Source of the DNA: a virus | Taxonomy: Duplodnaviria > Heunggongvirae > Uroviricota > Caudoviricetes | IMG/VR virus record: IMGVR_UViG_2671180603_000017 | Coordinates: 1 to 9,748 of that record | DNA: 9,748 nt | Strand: one strand, 5' to 3' | In this document: in pieces, positions 2,629 through 9,748 of the stretch | Layout of the letters: each line of letters opens with the position of its first letter | Position numbering within the stretch: the first letter of the stretch is position 1 | The notes under the pieces: model-generated | Database searches by the model: none | The model's input: only the letters and a program-made list of their open reading frames with translations | What the model was told of the DNA's origin: nothing | Program-made: the position numbers and the translations under genes

Positions 2629-2865
2629 TTAAAAAGGGCGGACATCAGCCAGCAATTAAACCGATGCCGCCAACTGGTACTTCACACAGCAATGTCGTTA
2701 TTTACAACCGGAGGCGCACTCCCACCATTTAAATTTAACAGACAAGACCGACTCTTTATGGATACCGGAAATGCGCCTTCGTGTTGTGCCCGGTTTTATT
2801 TCACCACCTCCGGGCTTTGGTATGAGGTGTACTGGCAATAGCGGACACTACCATTTGTTCTTTTT

Positions 2866-4271
<1,406 letters not shown>

Positions 4272-4272
4272 G

Positions 4273-4575
4273 GTTCAGCAGATTTGGCGCAACTGGCAGA
4301 TTGTGGTTCGAGTTCGTAGTCGCTCTGAACTTGCGTTTCTGCTTACAGCGTAGCCTTAGCTCCTTACGAAGACGTGCCAGTCGGTCACGACCAACGATGA
4401 TGCCATTCTCTGCCAGCTCCGTCTGGAGCCGCCGGGTTCCATATGTTTCGCGAGTGCGGATATGTGCCACCTTAATCTCCAGTTTTAGCCGCTCATCACT
4501 TTGTTTTCTGTCTGAGGGTTCATGCTGTACCCAGTTGTAATAACCGCTCCTGGATACACCAAATACCTGACACAT
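4273..4575 (-). pseudogene. IS600-like OrfB N-terminal portion, interrupted at 4272 by the IS911-like terminus
   Basis: Track ORF 4198..4575 matches IS600-like OrfB (MCQVFGVSRSGYYNW...NLPVAPNLLN) and then diverges at the junction. Confidence 0.7.
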
Positions 4576-4610
4576 CGCTTCAATGGGAAATTGTTGTCGC
4601 CATTGTTCGA

Positions 4611-4913
4611 TTAACGCGTATTTTTCAGCGACTCCTGTGCAAAATACGCTGTTGCTTTTTTTAATATATCTCGCTCAAGGCGAGCTTCATTTAACGCCTT
4701 ACGCAGTTGCAGAATTTCAGATTCCAGTTCAGCCACCGTGCGGGAACCAGGAGTACCGAGCCCTTTTCTGGCGGCGGTAACCCATTGTCCTAAAGTGCCT
4801 TCAGGAAGAGATAATCGGGAAGCGCCTTCACTGATCGAAAGTTGATTTTCAGGAACCGTTCTGACAGCTTCGGCTTTGAACTCTTTAGAGTAACGTTGGG
4901 TTTTTCTGCTCAT
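4611..4913 (-). CDS. IS600-like OrfA (transposase N-terminal HTH and leucine-zipper protein, 100 aa)
   Basis: Track ORF MSRKTQRYSKEFKAEAVRTV...ILKKATAYFAQESLKNTR, typical IS3-family OrfA; followed by an overlapping orfB in the -1 frame. Confidence 0.8.
   Translation of the reverse strand: MSRKTQRYSKEFKAEAVRTVPENQLSISEGASRLSLPEGTLGQWVTAARKGLGTPGSRTVAELESEILQLRKALNEARLERDILKKATAYFAQESLKNTR
4655..4662 (-). promoter_or_regulatory. Programmed -1 ribosomal frameshift site (A AAA AAA G) joining orfA to orfB
   Basis: A7G run in the orfA frame (UUA AAA AAA GCA). The orfB frame is open from this point down to 4273 (read codon by codon), as in other IS3-family OrfAB fusions. Confidence 0.6.
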
Positions 4914-5023
4914 TATTAGCTCCTTCTGATGCCATTCTATTTCAGGAAGGAGTGTCCGTTAAACTCAGGCTACCTCAGTGGTATCTTTACTGAAGTTCTC
5001 ACACAACCAGTAAGGAAATGAAT

Positions 5024-5314
5024 ATGCCAACGTATCTCGCCAGAGTAGAACTATATAATGCTGAGCCAGAGGATTACGAAGGGCTTCATAAATATATGCT
5101 CTCACTAGGATTCAGGAGAACGATCCCCCATGGAGATGGTTCGTATAATCAACTCCCGGACGGAACTTATGTTTCCGAAAAGGGCGGTGATATTTATCAA
5201 ATTCGCAGCCAGATATCTGACTATGCAGACCGACTATCCAGGTATCGCGCGTCTGTTTTTGTTTGCGAATTCAGTCAATGCGCATGGTATTTATACCCCG
5301 CCAAGACCCGGTGA
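5024..5314 (+). CDS. Hypothetical protein, 96 aa (track ORF 5018..5314; second ATG favoured)
   Basis: AAGGAA Shine-Dalgarno 7 nt before ATG 5024; no recognisable family. Its 3' end overlaps the convergent gene 5291..5494 by 24 bp, so one of the two calls may be wrong. Confidence 0.35.
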   Translation: MPTYLARVELYNAEPEDYEGLHKYMLSLGFRRTIPHGDGSYNQLPDGTYVSEKGGDIYQIRSQISDYADRLSRYRASVFVCEFSQCAWYLYPAKTR

Positions 5315-5494
5315 ATATCCTGCACGGCCTTCTGCTTTGTAGAAGGCTTCTTCGCTATCATAATCGCCAGATTCCAGCGCTTCTTTAGCCAGCCAGATGC
5401 GTGCCCCAGTGCCTGCATTTGGCTCCAGTTGCTGGAGGCGTTTTGCATCTTCTAGGAGTAGAGCGATAACGTGTTTTAATTCTGTCTCGTTCAT
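5291..5494 (-). CDS. Hypothetical small acidic protein, 67 aa (MNETELKHVIALLLEDAKRL...)
   Basis: ATG 5494-5492 preceded by AGGTGA; start lies 4 nt after the stop of the upstream small gene (compact, possibly coupled). Confidence 0.45.
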   Translation of the reverse strand: MNETELKHVIALLLEDAKRLQQLEPNAGTGARIWLAKEALESGDYDSEEAFYKAEGRAGYSPGLGGV

Positions 5495-5495
5495 T

Positions 5496-5651
5496 TTACT
5501 CACCTGAATGTCTTCCCAACCAACGACGTGCGCCAGCTTCGGTTTTAAACGTTTTGCTTTTGGTATACGTCATGGCGGTGAATGTGCCGTCTTGATTGGG
5601 AAACACGCCACATACCAGAGATTCGTTGTTGCCAAGATCGATAGTATTCAT
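5496..5651 (-). CDS. Hypothetical small protein, 51 aa (MNTIDLGNNESLVCGVFPNQDG...)
   Basis: ATG at 5651-5649 with a G-rich Shine-Dalgarno upstream; first gene downstream of the leftward promoter at 5832-5860. The track ORF's TTG start at 5714 is unlikely. Confidence 0.45.
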   Translation of the reverse strand: MNTIDLGNNESLVCGVFPNQDGTFTAMTYTKSKTFKTEAGARRWLGRHSGE

Positions 5652-5831
5652 GTTGACCCCATTTCCCCTTAACGCCGGGTGGCGGAACGTTTTATCTACT
5701 GCGCTTTGTATCAATCAACAACTGCCGTCATGTTCGTATGCCTCAGGCTGGCTACTTAGCCCTGTTCAGTGACTGGATAACTCGAGGTATTGTCCTGCCG
5801 TTCTCTGGTGGGGCGTTGTTTGGATATGCTT

Positions 5832-5873
5832 ATTAAACACAATTTGTTTTCTTGTGTCAACACGCAACGTGTT
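5832..5873 (-). promoter_or_regulatory. Leftward (PL-like) promoter: -35 TTGACA (5860-5855), 17-bp spacer, -10 TTTAAT (5837-5832); overlapped by operator-like palindromes AACACGCAACGTGTT (5859-5873) and ACACAA-N9-TTGTGT (5837-5857)
   Basis: Hexamers and palindromes read directly; the half-site AACAC/GTGTT recurs in the divergent promoter region at 6434-6448. Confidence 0.45.
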
Positions 5874-5902
5874 TTATGGTGAGTGTCATATGATGATGCT
5901 AC

Positions 5903-5925
5903 AAAAAAGCCCGCTGATAGCGGGC
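5903..5925 (-). terminator. Intrinsic terminator of the repressor gene: stem GCCCGC/GCGGGC, 5-nt loop, U6 tract
   Basis: GC-rich hairpin followed by a U-run on the minus strand, 32 nt downstream of the repressor stop. Confidence 0.6.
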
Positions 5926-5956
5926 TGATTGGCATATTACTGTGATAGCAAGATCA

Positions 5957-6376
5957 TTATTCCGGTGGGGGATTATCTTTAATCCTGCCTCTCAAATATT
6001 TTTCTACATACTCATCGATTTCTTTTAGCCGGACTTCAAATAGCTCAATCATTCGTTGTTGTTCTGAGCCCGGTAGCTGGTTAAACAACTCAAGAAGTTT
6101 TCGTTGGGATTCATTTAACCACAATTCAGAAGATTCCTGTTCTCCAAAGAGGAGCTCAGGAGGAGATATGCCAAGTGCCTTTCCCAATACGACAGCGTCA
6201 TGTACTCCAACATTTCTGCTGCCCGCCTCATAGTTACCTATACGCGATTGCGTCCATCCGCAGATTTCAGCAAGTTTTCCTTGAGATAAACCAAGCTTCT
6301 GCCTGCGCTCTTTAAGACGCATTGCAATTTTGTCATTGAGCCTACTAGCGGCAATTTTTTCGTTTTCTTTTTCCAT
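5957..6376 (-). CDS. Prophage repressor, HTH XRE family (DicA/CI-like), 139 aa
   Basis: HTH motif LGLSQGKLAEICGWTQSRIGNYEAG; a C-terminal segment (QRKLLELFNQLPGSEQQRMIELFE) resembles my recollection of DicA; divergently arranged with a Cro-like gene. Confidence 0.7.
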   Translation of the reverse strand: MEKENEKIAASRLNDKIAMRLKERRQKLGLSQGKLAEICGWTQSRIGNYEAGSRNVGVHDAVVLGKALGISPPELLFGEQESSELWLNESQRKLLELFNQLPGSEQQRMIELFEVRLKEIDEYVEKYLRGRIKDNPPPE

Positions 6377-6387
6377 TGCATCCTTGT

Positions 6388-6448
6388 ATCACGAATCGTG
6401 ATTTACATAAAACACAAAACAGCTTGGCTATATAACACAAGGTGTGTT
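6388..6448. promoter_or_regulatory. Divergent promoter/operator region: palindromes ATCACGA-A-TCGTGAT (6388-6402) and AACACAAGGTGTGTT (6434-6448)
   Basis: Perfect inverted repeats in the 96-bp intergenic region between the repressor and Cro-like genes; GGAGG Shine-Dalgarno at 6462-6466. Confidence 0.5.
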
Positions 6449-6472
6449 TAAAATTGTCATCGGAGGTTTTCA

Positions 6473-6715
6473 ATGAACAAAATTTCAACATATCGAAAAC
6501 AGCTTGGGCTGTCTCAAAGACAACTTGCTGTTCAGTTAGGGTGGATACAAAGCCGACTGGCAAATTACGAAGCAAATTTTCGTACCCCTGGACTAGAGGA
6601 GTGCAGAAAAATTGTTTCTACCCTTAATCGGCTTGGCGCTCATTGTGGACTTGACGATGTATTCCCCCCAGACGGTAAGCATAGCGAAAACAGCATAGGA
6701 GCGGTTGATTCATGA
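6473..6715 (+). CDS. Cro/YdaS-like HTH DNA-binding protein, 80 aa
   Basis: HTH motif LGLSQRQLAVQLGWIQSRLANYEAN, nearly the same recognition helix as the repressor; strong RBS; stop overlaps the next ATG (ATGA). Confidence 0.65.
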   Translation: MNKISTYRKQLGLSQRQLAVQLGWIQSRLANYEANFRTPGLEECRKIVSTLNRLGAHCGLDDVFPPDGKHSENSIGAVDS

Positions 6716-7133
6716 AAATCAGGCATGAGCACATCGAATCAGTGCTGTTGCCCTGGCAGCCGAAAAAGGGCAGGCGTGGGTCGCTAACGCAATTACTGAA
6801 GAATATCTGCGCCAGGGGGGCGGCGAATTGCCCCTTGTACCAGGCAAGGACTGGAACAATCAGCAGAATATCTATCACCGTTGGTTGAAAGGTGAAACGA
6901 AAGCGCAAAGGGAAAAAATTCAGAAACTGATCCCTGCGGTTCTGGCAATTCTTCCGCGTGAGCTGCGTCACCGACTCTGTATCTTCGATACCCTGGAACG
7001 CCGTGCATTACTGGCGGCGCAGGAAGCGTTGAGTACGGCAATTGATGCGCATGATGATGCAGTCCAGGCCGTTTACCGGAAAGCGCATTTCAGCGGCGGC
7101 GGGTCTTCCGACGATTCTGTCATTGTTCATTAA
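6712..7133 (+). pseudogene. ydaT: YdaT-like (Rac prophage) gene with an apparent 1-bp deletion frameshift near 6748-6752
   Basis: ATG 6712 is translationally coupled (ATGA) and encodes MKIRHEHIESVL, then hits a stop at 6886. The rest of the protein (AEKGQAWVANAITEEYLRQGGGELPLVPGKDWNN...SDDSVIVH) is in the -1 shifted frame (track ORF 6828..7133), which has no ATG or GTG start. Confidence 0.55.
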
Positions 7134-7196
7134 GCAAAAGTTTCCATGCTGTTTGTGCTTATTCTAAGCAACCGGGCAGCATCATACGGGGCAATT

Positions 7197-8345
7197 ATGG
7201 CCGCATTACCATACATGCAACTGTACATAGCTGATTACCTGGCTGACACCATGCATTTGTCAGCAGAGGAGCACGGCGCGTATTTGTTGCTGATGTTCAA
7301 TTACTGGCAAACAGGAAAGCCAATACCCAAAAACAGGTTGGCAAAAATTGCCCGTCTGACTAACGAGCGATGGGTTGATGTTGAACCATCCTTGCGGGAG
7401 TTTTTTTGTGATAACGGCGACGAATGGATGCATCTTCGGATTGAGGAAGATCTGGCATCTGTCAGAGAAAAATTAACCAAAAAATCAGCCGCAGGAAAAG
7501 CATCTGTTCAGGCCAGAAGAAGCAGAAAGGAAGCAGATGTTCAAACAAAACAAGAGAGAAATTTAACAGGTGTTCAAACAGATGTTGGAGTGATGTTCGA
7601 ACATGATGCCAACACAAAGGCAACTAATAAAGATACAGATAAAGATCTAAAAACAGATCTAACCCATCCCAAACCCTTCCCTTCCGGAAGGGAGTTTCGG
7701 GATTTTGTGGCTGGAGTGCTTGAGGGGAGATTATCTGGCGGTACTGCAGCGGAATTTTGTAATTCTGCGGTGGTTGCGTTGCAGGCTGCTGGCCTGGATG
7801 TCTGTCGTGAGTATCCGGTGCCAGAGCGTGGTGACGGTTGCGGAGGGCGGATTGATATCGTCGTGACTGACAGGAACGGTGTCCGGTGTGGGAGCGAGCT
7901 TGACCGAAATTCTCCGCGACAGAAATCACTGCTCAAAATCGGTGCTGTTGAAACCGGGATATGTGTCTTGCGGCGCAGTGATATCGCAAGGCACACCGAG
8001 CAGGGAATTCTGGTTATCGGTGGGGCTGTTCGCCAGAAAAAATTTGACCCGTTGTCAGTTGATCTGCCCGACTGGTTGCCAGAAACACTCTGGCATGAGT
8101 GGGTCCAGTTCAGGCAGGCATTGCGAAAACCGATTCGAACGGAGCAGGGCGCTAACGGGGCGATACGGGAACTGGAAAAATTCCGTCAGCAGGGTTTTAC
8201 ACCTGAGCAGGTGATTCGACACAGCATCGCCAATGAATACCAGGGTCTGTTCGCGCCGAAAGGTGTTCGGCCTGAGACGTTGCTCCGACAGGTTAACACC
8301 GTCTCGTTGCCGGACAGTGCGATCCCGCCAGGCTTCAGGGGGTAA
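7197..8345 (+). CDS. YdaU-like phage replication protein (N-terminal DUF1376-type domain, charged linker, C-terminal domain), 382 aa; alternative start 7146
   Basis: Track ORF 7146..8345; the internal ATG 7197 has a G-rich Shine-Dalgarno; N-terminus MAALPYMQLYIADYLADTMHLSAEEHGAYLLLMFNYW; positioned directly upstream of a DnaC-like gene. Confidence 0.6.
   Translation: MAALPYMQLYIADYLADTMHLSAEEHGAYLLLMFNYWQTGKPIPKNRLAKIARLTNERWVDVEPSLREFFCDNGDEWMHLRIEEDLASVREKLTKKSAAGKASVQARRSRKEADVQTKQERNLTGVQTDVGVMFEHDANTKATNKDTDKDLKTDLTHPKPFPSGREFRDFVAGVLEGRLSGGTAAEFCNSAVVALQAAGLDVCREYPVPERGDGCGGRIDIVVTDRNGVRCGSELDRNSPRQKSLLKIGAVETGICVLRRSDIARHTEQGILVIGGAVRQKKFDPLSVDLPDWLPETLWHEWVQFRQALRKPIRTEQGANGAIRELEKFRQQGFTPEQVIRHSIANEYQGLFAPKGVRPETLLRQVNTVSLPDSAIPPGFRG
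7536..7660. other. Putative replication origin inside the YdaU-like gene: three 12-bp iteron-like repeats G(A/G)TGTTC(A/G)AACA at 7536, 7569 and 7592, then an AT-rich segment with two GATC sites (7621-7660)
   Basis: Repeats read directly; they fall in the low-complexity linker coding region, as the lambda origin does within gene O. Confidence 0.35.
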
Positions 8346-8351
8346 CAGACC

Positions 8352-9098
8352 ATGAAAAATATTGCGACAGGAGGCGTTCTGGAGCGTATCCGCAGACTGA
8401 CCCCACCACATGTAACCGCCCCATTCAGAACGGTTGCGGAGTGGCGCGAGTGGCAACTTGCTGAAGGCCAGAAACGTTGCGAGGAGATCAACCGCCTGAA
8501 TCGTCAGTTGCGGGTGGAAAAAATCCTGAACCGCTCCGGCATCCAGCCGTTGCACCGGAAGTGTTCGTTTGCGAATTACCGGGCGCAGAACGACGGTCAG
8601 CGACATGCACTGAGTCAGGCGAAATCCATAGCTGACGAACTGATGACAGGCTGTACGAATTTTGTGTTCAGCGGTAAGCCCGGCACCGGAAAAAATCATC
8701 TTGCAGACGCGATTGGCAACCGGCTGATGGCGAAGGGGCGTAGCGTGATTATCGTCACCGTGTCCGATGTCATGAGCGTGTTGCATGAGAGCTACGACAA
8801 CGGCAAATCCGGTGAAAAATTTTTACAGGAGCTTTGTGGTGTTGACCTGCTGGTCCTGGATGAAATTGGCATGCAGCGGGATACGAAAAACGAGCAGGTG
8901 GTACTGAACCAGATTGTTGATCGCCGGACGGCATCGTTACGCGGTGTGGGGATGCTGACAAATATTAACCATGCAGCGATGAATACACTTCTCGGCGAGC
9001 GGGTGATGGATCGCATGGTCATGAACGGCGGGCGCTGGGTGAATTTTAACTGGGAGAGCTGGCGTCCGAATGTTAGCCATTCGAGGGTTGTTAAGTAG
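8352..9098 (+). CDS. ydaV: DnaC/IstB-like AAA+ helicase loader (YdaV-like replication protein), 248 aa
   Basis: Walker A GKPGTGKNHLA and Walker B LLVLDEIG; position after the replication-initiator-like gene; close to my recollection of Rac YdaV. Confidence 0.75.
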   Translation: MKNIATGGVLERIRRLTPPHVTAPFRTVAEWREWQLAEGQKRCEEINRLNRQLRVEKILNRSGIQPLHRKCSFANYRAQNDGQRHALSQAKSIADELMTGCTNFVFSGKPGTGKNHLADAIGNRLMAKGRSVIIVTVSDVMSVLHESYDNGKSGEKFLQELCGVDLLVLDEIGMQRDTKNEQVVLNQIVDRRTASLRGVGMLTNINHAAMNTLLGERVMDRMVMNGGRWVNFNWESWRPNVSHSRVVK

Positions 9099-9112
9099 TT
9101 TCAGGAGGATTT

Positions 9113-9535
9113 ATGGCGAAACCTTTTACTCCCGAACAGCGGGAAGAACTGAAGACGCGAATTGTGGAACTCGTGCATCAGGACGGTCGGGTCACGATTC
9201 GGCAGTTGTCAGATGAAACAGGTATCAGTCGTGCGTCTGTCGGTCGCTTATGCATAGAACTGGTCGCAAGTGGTGATGTATATAATTCTGGCTACGGCTT
9301 ATTCCCGTCTGAACAGGCTCGCAAGGACTGGCAAAGCGCCCGCAAAAAACTCTCGAGAGTAAAGGTGAGGAAACCGGTTGTTGTTGATCCGGACCTTATC
9401 TGGTCATTACCTGACGGAGAAATACGCCGCTACGACAGGCGCCTGAATATAATCTGTCGCGAGTGCCGGAAGAGCGAAGCTATGCAGCGTGTACTGGCTT
9501 TCTATCAGGGTAATTTTCAGGAGGCGATACTGTGA
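9113..9535 (+). CDS. Hypothetical phage protein with a putative N-terminal winged-HTH (VTIRQLSDETGISRASVGRL), 140 aa
   Basis: AGGAGG Shine-Dalgarno 5 nt before the ATG; C-terminal region duplicated in the next gene. Confidence 0.55.
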   Translation: MAKPFTPEQREELKTRIVELVHQDGRVTIRQLSDETGISRASVGRLCIELVASGDVYNSGYGLFPSEQARKDWQSARKKLSRVKVRKPVVVDPDLIWSLPDGEIRRYDRRLNIICRECRKSEAMQRVLAFYQGNFQEAIL

Positions 9536-9592
9536 ATGAAATTAGCTATCAGGCTTCAATTACCGCTGGCATTCGCATCAAAGGAGAGGAGC

Positions 9593-9748
9593 ATGGAAAT
9601 AAAACACAAAAAGCTATCGAGGGTAAAGGTGAAGAAACCGGTTGTGGTTGATCCTGACCTTATCTGGTCATTACCAGACGGAGAAATACGCCGCTACGAC
9701 AGGCGCCTGAATATAATCTGTCGCGAGTGCCGGAAGAGCGAAGCTATG
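9593..9748 (+). CDS. Partial CDS (3' end outside window), paralog sharing the C-terminal module of the preceding gene (…KLSRVKVKKPVVVDPDLIWSLPDGEIRRYDRRLNIICRECRKSEAM…)
   Basis: ATG 9593 preceded by AAGGAGAGGAG; an in-frame alternative ATG exists at 9536; 9610-9748 is near-identical to 9347-9485. Confidence 0.5.
   Translation, partial: MEIKHKKLSRVKVKKPVVVDPDLIWSLPDGEIRRYDRRLNIICRECRKSEAM

Follow-up and report, generated by a model that had tools for sequence, protein, structure and literature searches.

The DNA analysed here (the window) is the entire 9,748-bp contig CXDK01000186.1 of a Shigella sonnei short-read draft assembly, GCA_001252175.1. The locus belongs to a lambdoid prophage resembling Rac and CP-933P, of which it forms the immunity and replication module. 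Its gene order, with 5957-6376 on the minus strand followed by 6473-6715, 6712-7133, 7146-8345 and 8352-9098 on the plus strand, is the same in annotated E. coli relatives. The genes considered below are these.

5957-6376, minus strand: cI-like prophage repressor of 139 aa (Pfam HTH_3, E 4.6e-13), divergent from the Cro-like gene
6473-6715, plus strand: Cro-like HTH_3 regulator of 80 aa, Cro80 (Pfam HTH_3, E 6.7e-10)
6712-7133, plus strand: ydaT frame for a CII-analogue transcription factor, with a 1-nt deletion; 140 aa when restored
7146-8345, plus strand: ydaU-like replication initiator of 399 aa, YdaU399 (Pfam DUF1376, E 7e-25), specific to the prophage locus called A below
8352-9098, plus strand: DnaC/IstB-like helicase loader (ydaV-like) of 248 aa (Pfam IstB_IS21, E 4e-18)
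9113-9535, plus strand: DUF977 gene (Pfam DUF977), with the sequence of a second prophage locus, called B below, from about 9256

The DNA of the Cro80 gene is identical in E. coli VL40 and RM9872, where the product is annotated as WP_001033914.1, and the same 139-aa repressor adjoins the Cro80-ydaT pair both in E. coli and in locus A of S. sonnei. In one relative, E. coli O145 RM12275-C1 (L002), the Cro80 gene lacks one base of its C run, at the equivalent of window position 6664, which shortens the annotated Cro-like protein (225-nt CDS); ydaT is intact there. The YdaU-like protein encoded by 7146-8345 is 399 aa in the window and 289 aa in E. coli O145 RM9872. The extra central segment of YdaU399 had no Pfam or NCBIfam match, and the counterpart of this gene in E. 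coli VL40 is annotated by PGAP as two partial pseudogenes. In complete genomes ydaU399 lies downstream of an intact ydaT. Scanning of 6300-7200 for promoters and terminators returned nothing above the shuffled expectation. The repressor/cro intergenic region contains a weak 11-nt direct repeat, ATAAAACACAA / ATATAACACAA, at 6407-6417 and 6430-6440 (23 nt apart), which may represent operator half-sites.

The preliminary description, made from the sequence alone, took the gene that follows cro for ydaT, and this identification is supported by its Pfam match, by full-length alignment to solved structures and by its occupying the position of cII. The restored protein matched the Pfam family YdaT_toxin (PF06254) with 44.3 bits (cut-off 21; E 2.5e-11). 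In phmmer searches it aligned with 3c4r_A over residues 1-140 (E 1.6e-6) and with 8bt1_A over residues 2-140 (E 1.2e-5), such that similarity to the crystallised YdaT proteins is modest. The recognition-helix residues H56, R57 and W58 are all present in the restored sequence (...NIYHRWLKG...), and the gene directly follows the cro-like gene, lies opposite the repressor and precedes the replication genes.

YdaT contains a POU-like helix-turn-helix domain (alpha1-alpha5), in which alpha3 is the recognition helix, and a long helix, alpha6, that makes the tetramer; the protein targets TTGATTN6AATCAA boxes, and a construct without alpha6 did not bind DNA (PMC9986795). DNA binding by Rac YdaT requires H56 and R57, and the protein, which also activates the host gene rcsA, is toxic when expressed or derepressed (PMC11879457). 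The 'toxin' label of the family is historical (PMC5917428), and YdaT has already been published as the functional equivalent of lambda CII. Like CII, it is a tetrameric helix-turn-helix regulator that is encoded just after cro and has a target site at the cro/cII junction, and its overproduction is toxic (PMC5917428, PMC9986795, PMC11879457). The two have no detectable sequence-family membership in common, and YdaT is built on a POU-like domain in which a long loop joins alpha2 and alpha3. The window's gene shares with YdaT of Rac and CP-933P (PDB 8bt1 and 3c4r) its family, its full-length alignment, its post-Cro position, the conserved H56, R57 and W58, and a similar operator box where cro and ydaT meet. 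It differs from them in that its frame is broken after codon 13 and in that its partner Cro is an HTH_3 protein rather than YdaS (PF15943).

6705-6722, plus strand: inverted repeat resembling a YdaT box, TTGATTcatgaaAATCAg, which covers the stop of cro and the start of ydaT

This repeat, TTGATTCATGAAAATCAG, has one mismatch to the published operator TTGATTN6AATCAA (PMC9986795). It is the sole match in the window, with 0.04 expected by chance, and its sequence suggests that it could be bound by YdaT. On its left side, the homology shared by prophage loci A and B begins at this putative box.

An uninterrupted frame of about 140 codons would be expected of YdaT; instead, the gene is split into open reading frames of 58 and 101 codons. 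The start is coupled to the gene upstream as had been read from the sequence, with ATG 6712-6714 overlapping TGA 6713-6715 of the 80-aa HTH_3 gene (ATGA). The ATG frame had been said to encode 12 residues, but it actually runs for 58 codons to TGA 6886-6888, and its YdaT sequence is limited to the first 13 residues, MKIRHEHIESVLL. We verified that the other frame stays open between 6729 and its stop at 7131-7133 and that it contains neither ATG nor GTG; the first conventional start codon in it, TTG 6828, would give 101 aa.

6712-6888, plus strand: open reading frame of 58 codons made by the frameshift (13 YdaT residues and 45 out-of-frame residues)
6749-6750, plus strand: site of a missing A, located by alignment (TT-GCC in the window, TTA GCC in intact homologues)
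6828-7133, plus strand: TTG-initiated remainder of 101 codons, corresponding to YdaT residues 40-140; 'bacteriophage protein' according to gene callers

Addition of one base after 6749 yielded a continuous 140-aa protein. When that base was A, the product was an exact match to WP_000702026.1 ('toxin YdaT family protein') and identical to YdaT of E. coli VL40. The earlier expectation that restoring a single base near 6748-6752 would produce a protein of about 140 aa was therefore borne out, whereas the base suggested, T (TTT, Phe), is ruled out because the homologues have A (TTA, Leu). The window reads GTG CTG TT- GCC where 9 of 9 aligned intact homologues read GTG (T/C)TG TTA GCC; these include E. 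coli VL40, RM9872, RM12275, 2011C-4251, an O157:H7 strain and C5. The lesion is a single-base loss relative to all of the intact homologues, and it lies outside any homopolymer. Over 4978-9528 the window is 99.45% identical to E. coli VL40 and the sole gap is the ydaT deletion; the same single gap in ydaT was observed relative to RM9872, 53G and others. Searching with 71 nt that span the site gave matches in 831 complete E. coli genomes, but no match reached 99% identity, and thus the deletion is present in 0 of these 831 genomes. We also looked for homologues that start independently in the downstream frame, and no homologue with such a natural start was found. As the split is a deterministic feature of the sequence, chance is not at issue. 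From these data we conclude that ydaT as written in this contig is a pseudogene.

Placed on the solved structure, the frame shift after codon 13 would fall within helix alpha1, and thus translation from the coupled start would provide neither the DNA-binding domain nor the tetramerisation helix. The 101-aa remainder also matches PF06254 in precomputed Pfam matches, but a product initiated at TTG 6828 would be expected, from the structure in PMC9986795, to be without alpha1 and alpha2, two helices of the DNA-binding domain. Judged by the published structure, neither product of the split frame would combine a complete DNA-binding domain with the oligomerisation helix.

Tracing the 399-aa YdaU into complete S. 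sonnei genomes led to locus A, which is found at about 1.955 Mb in strain 53G (HE616528.1), in CP061367 and in at least three further similar places. Locus A has the same 139-aa repressor, Cro80 and YdaU399 as the window, together with an intact 140-aa ydaT that reads TTGTTAGCC at the site of the lesion; among the matches listed, its ydaT was seen intact in 53G and CP061367. In these two genomes locus A also carries a DDE_3 transposase insertion (343 aa) between a 67-aa gene and a DUF1391 gene. The insertion site corresponds to window 5453/5454 in comparison with L019 5154-6306, and the insertion is absent from the window and from draft L027.

In some drafts a P22_Cro-type gene lies ahead of the deleted ydaT. 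Tracing that Cro protein into complete genomes led to locus B, which in 53G (HE616528.1) lies at about 0.777 Mb (776.7 kb) beside molybdate ABC-transporter genes. Locus B consists of a 135-aa repressor, the 75-aa P22_Cro protein, ydaT and a different downstream gene. The two loci are about 1.2 Mb apart in strain 53G and share about 96% identity over about 426 bp, between 6706 and about 7131. We found the CTGTT-GCC deletion in 10 of 10 locus-B copies examined (L028-L037), nine of them with contigs longer than 4.8 Mb. In the closest intact E. coli locus B (FDAARGOS_944), ydaT differs only by the A and one SNP. The presence of the deletion in all of the S. sonnei locus-B copies, together with the near-identical intact gene of FDAARGOS_944, indicates that it is a genuine and recent lesion that is fixed at locus B. 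The preliminary description had left a choice between a genuine mutation and a sequencing error. The mutation is indeed genuine, in that it is inherited, but it belongs to the paralogous locus B, and the base-calling error did not stand.

The ydaT gene of the window resembles both copies. With the locus-B pseudogene it shares the identical lesion and the identical linked alleles at 6745, 6959 and 6980, but the repressor, the Cro protein and the gene after ydaT are different and there are 14 mismatches across ydaT. With the intact locus-A gene (WP_000702026.1; 53G and E. coli VL40) it shares the flanking genes and the restored protein of VL40, but it differs by the 1-nt deletion and three locus-B SNP alleles. 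Over 5453-9255 only 5 differences separate the window from 53G locus A, and 4 of these are locus-B alleles inside ydaT. The variable-site table and the differences from 53G locus A place them in two patches.

6745-6749, plus strand: first locus-B patch, comprising C at 6745 and the deletion
6959-6980, plus strand: second locus-B patch, comprising T at 6959 and T at 6980

Locus-A bases are present at 6700-6705, at 6812-6836 and from 7061 onward according to the same table, so that the alleles in the window run in the order A-B-A-B-A within 240 bp. At 6700, 6702, 6703 and 6705 the locus-A bases are A, C, G and T, and those of locus B are G, A, A and G.

Similar mixtures were found in other drafts, all of which were retrieved through the frameshift products themselves or through ydaU399, such that the sample is biased. 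Ten draft contigs displayed six different patchworks, the window's included. L004 and L005 combine a locus-A upstream region with the deletion and are locus A thereafter, whereas L012b has a locus-B upstream region, the deletion and then locus A. A locus-B upstream region and the deletion are followed by A, B, B and A alleles in L018 and by B, A and A alleles in L023. L012 has a locus-A upstream region and an intact copy that ends at an N exactly on variable site 6959. Three of the patchworks fuse a locus-B upstream region to the locus-A downstream gene ydaU399. Alleles no more than 21 nt apart always travel together, whereas alleles at least 24 nt apart are shuffled. Seven draft contigs (the window and six others), mostly from one sequencing project, join a locus-A upstream region to the deletion. 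In contrast, complete genomes contain only pure A or pure B haplotypes, with no mixing.

The sizes of the contigs differ as well. The exact 58-aa product was found in only 4 draft contigs of 2-10 kb, all from S. sonnei, and the exact 101-aa product in 12 contigs, all shorter than 10 kb and with S. sonnei as the only recorded source. Frameshift products of the locus-A type (58 aa and 101 aa) were confined to contigs shorter than 10 kb, whereas ydaU399 and the intact 140-aa protein were found on contigs of megabase size. One of the 12 contigs with the 101-aa product, L013 (Logan DRR704755), acquired it through a different lesion. At 2298-2719 of this contig, in a prophage of the RacR/YdaS type, an independent ydaT frameshift leaves the TTA codon intact and changes G6 to G5 in the run that matches window 6812-6817; this could be a real mutation or an assembly error.

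The 3' end of the window departs from locus A in a second place. From 9100 to 9605 it is 100% identical to locus B and 95.5% identical to locus A. The switch from A to B occurs inside the DUF977 gene, at 9256-9605, and is followed by a repeated locus-A segment.

9607-9748, plus strand: locus-A DUF977 segment with which the contig ends, repeated out of collinear order; it matches 53G locus A 10198-10339 at 100% identity

Comparison of the window with itself showed that 9607-9748 is 95% identical to 9343-9484, with a junction microhomology of only AAAA. Because the B version of the DUF977 segment is followed by the A version, the contig holds one 142-bp segment twice in tandem. The contig end coincides exactly with the start of an IS element in 53G locus A.

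The upstream half of the contig also contains repeated sequence. A 220-bp internal piece of IS600 is present twice (3375-3594 and 4266-4485; 99.1% identical), and the IS600 copy (2823-4977) holds a 670-bp IS911 fragment (3596-4265) between the two 220-bp pieces. Target-site duplications of the IS3 family comprise only a few bases, and 220 bp is far longer, so that this is not a target-site duplication. A further assembly artefact, or else a complex rearrangement, probably explains the IS600 duplication. Farther upstream are two paralogues of a Rha-family regulator, 91% identical in DNA, with an inverted partial IS600 copy between them (76-990, 1045-1610 and 1564-2451). The first Rha gene is a 99.4% match to 53G locus A, and 1045-2045, which crosses the IS600/Rha junction, is a 99.9% match to locus B.

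Comparison of the assemblies suggests that the mosaic most likely arose in silico and not in the cell. On this basis we consider it probable that the deletion in the window is the real, fixed pseudogene lesion of the locus-B paralogue, placed in a locus-A context by collapsed-repeat assembly. The loss of a single A from ydaT of the second defective prophage, locus B, is inherited in S. sonnei. In such a scheme, short-read assembly would have collapsed the two near-identical ydaT copies, and the variant bubbles would have been resolved independently, with alleles picked patch by patch. The locus-B deletion and the three linked SNP alleles could thereby have been written into the locus-A contig. 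The joining of loci that lie about 1.2 Mb from each other, like the non-collinear 3' end of the window, has the look of mis-assembly. If this reading is correct, ydaT at locus A of this strain is probably intact and only the locus-B copy is a pseudogene. Some observations sit less comfortably with an assembly origin. A real sub-lineage with a gene-conversion tract would show the same shared combination in the seven drafts, and co-variation of near sites with shuffling of distant ones is expected of gene conversion as well as of bubble popping. In addition, the switch in L018 from 7061 to 7085 is only 24 nt from the next variant, and thus the assembly model needs a small k or a read-mapping consensus.

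The main alternative is real ectopic gene conversion, in which short locus-B ydaT tracts were copied into locus A and both copies were truly inactivated; we judge this unlikely. The non-A alleles of the window are exactly those of locus B, the identity of about 96% between the copies suffices for RecA-mediated exchange, and the combination of a locus-A upstream region with the deletion recurs in the window and six other drafts. Derepressed YdaT is toxic (PMC11879457), so that a cell might tolerate losing it or even benefit. However, two separate short tracts would be needed to generate the A-B-A-B-A order within 240 bp, and at least five other patterns would be needed in other isolates of a clonal species. 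Moreover, mixing is absent from every complete genome, the products are confined to contigs shorter than 10 kb, and the contigs with B-upstream and A-downstream sequence, like the non-collinear 3' end, look mis-assembled. A wider version of the same idea, in which frequent short-tract conversion between co-resident defective prophages generated several independent patterns and a concerted decay of CII-like regulators, strikes us as quite doubtful.

It is highly improbable that locus A acquired a new and independent deletion, or that this assembly contains a random error of base calling or consensus. A single-base indel is the simplest lesion or error, but this one is linked to C 6745, T 6959 and T 6980, all of which are locus-B alleles, and the identical lesion recurs in at least 12 draft contigs as well as in every locus-B copy of the complete genomes. 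The site is also not a homopolymer. The linked locus-B alleles and the recurrence across many assemblies rule out random sequencing error.

Finally, we considered whether the split gene might be functional, either through a -1 slip at G_AAA_AAG (6762-6768) or through reinitiation at TTG 6828. A_AAG motifs are shifty in E. coli. The AAA_AAG sequence lies in the correct frame 13 nt past the lesion. Ribosomes slipping by -1 at that point would move into the YdaT frame and make a 140-aa YdaT in which residues 14-18 change from ALAAE to PWQPK. The A-site part of the heptamer (A_AAG) is canonical, but its first position is not. For reinitiation, AGGGGGG precedes TTG 6828 with a spacing of 10 nt, as part of a G-rich stretch at 6812-6817. 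Against recoding, the fold of 6761-6850 gave no stimulatory structure downstream (z = -0.19; 87 of 200 shuffles folded at least as well) and there was no AGGAGG-like (Shine-Dalgarno-like) stimulator upstream of the slip site. The A5G run also occurs in intact genes and thus did not evolve for frameshifting. The closest relatives of both loci are single-frame, and the split is found in 0 of the 831 matching complete E. coli genomes. Reinitiation would yield the 101-aa product that is without helices alpha1 and alpha2. With neither a stimulatory structure nor conservation, we reject programmed -1 frameshifting and TTG-6828 reinitiation as exceedingly improbable.

The ydaT gene, its CII-like role and the decay of Shigella prophages are all already known, and the inactivation of a regulatory gene by one base, in a defective prophage riddled with IS elements, is routine Shigella genome decay that carries little biological weight. 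If the patchwork were true, it would signify unusually active gene conversion between prophages in a clonal pathogen. The more general message is one of caution: short-read drafts of genomes with related prophages can carry the lesion of one paralogue on the contig of another. Calls of pseudogenes, and of which copy is still functional, are then unreliable, which is a concern with ydaT, whose derepressed product is toxic.
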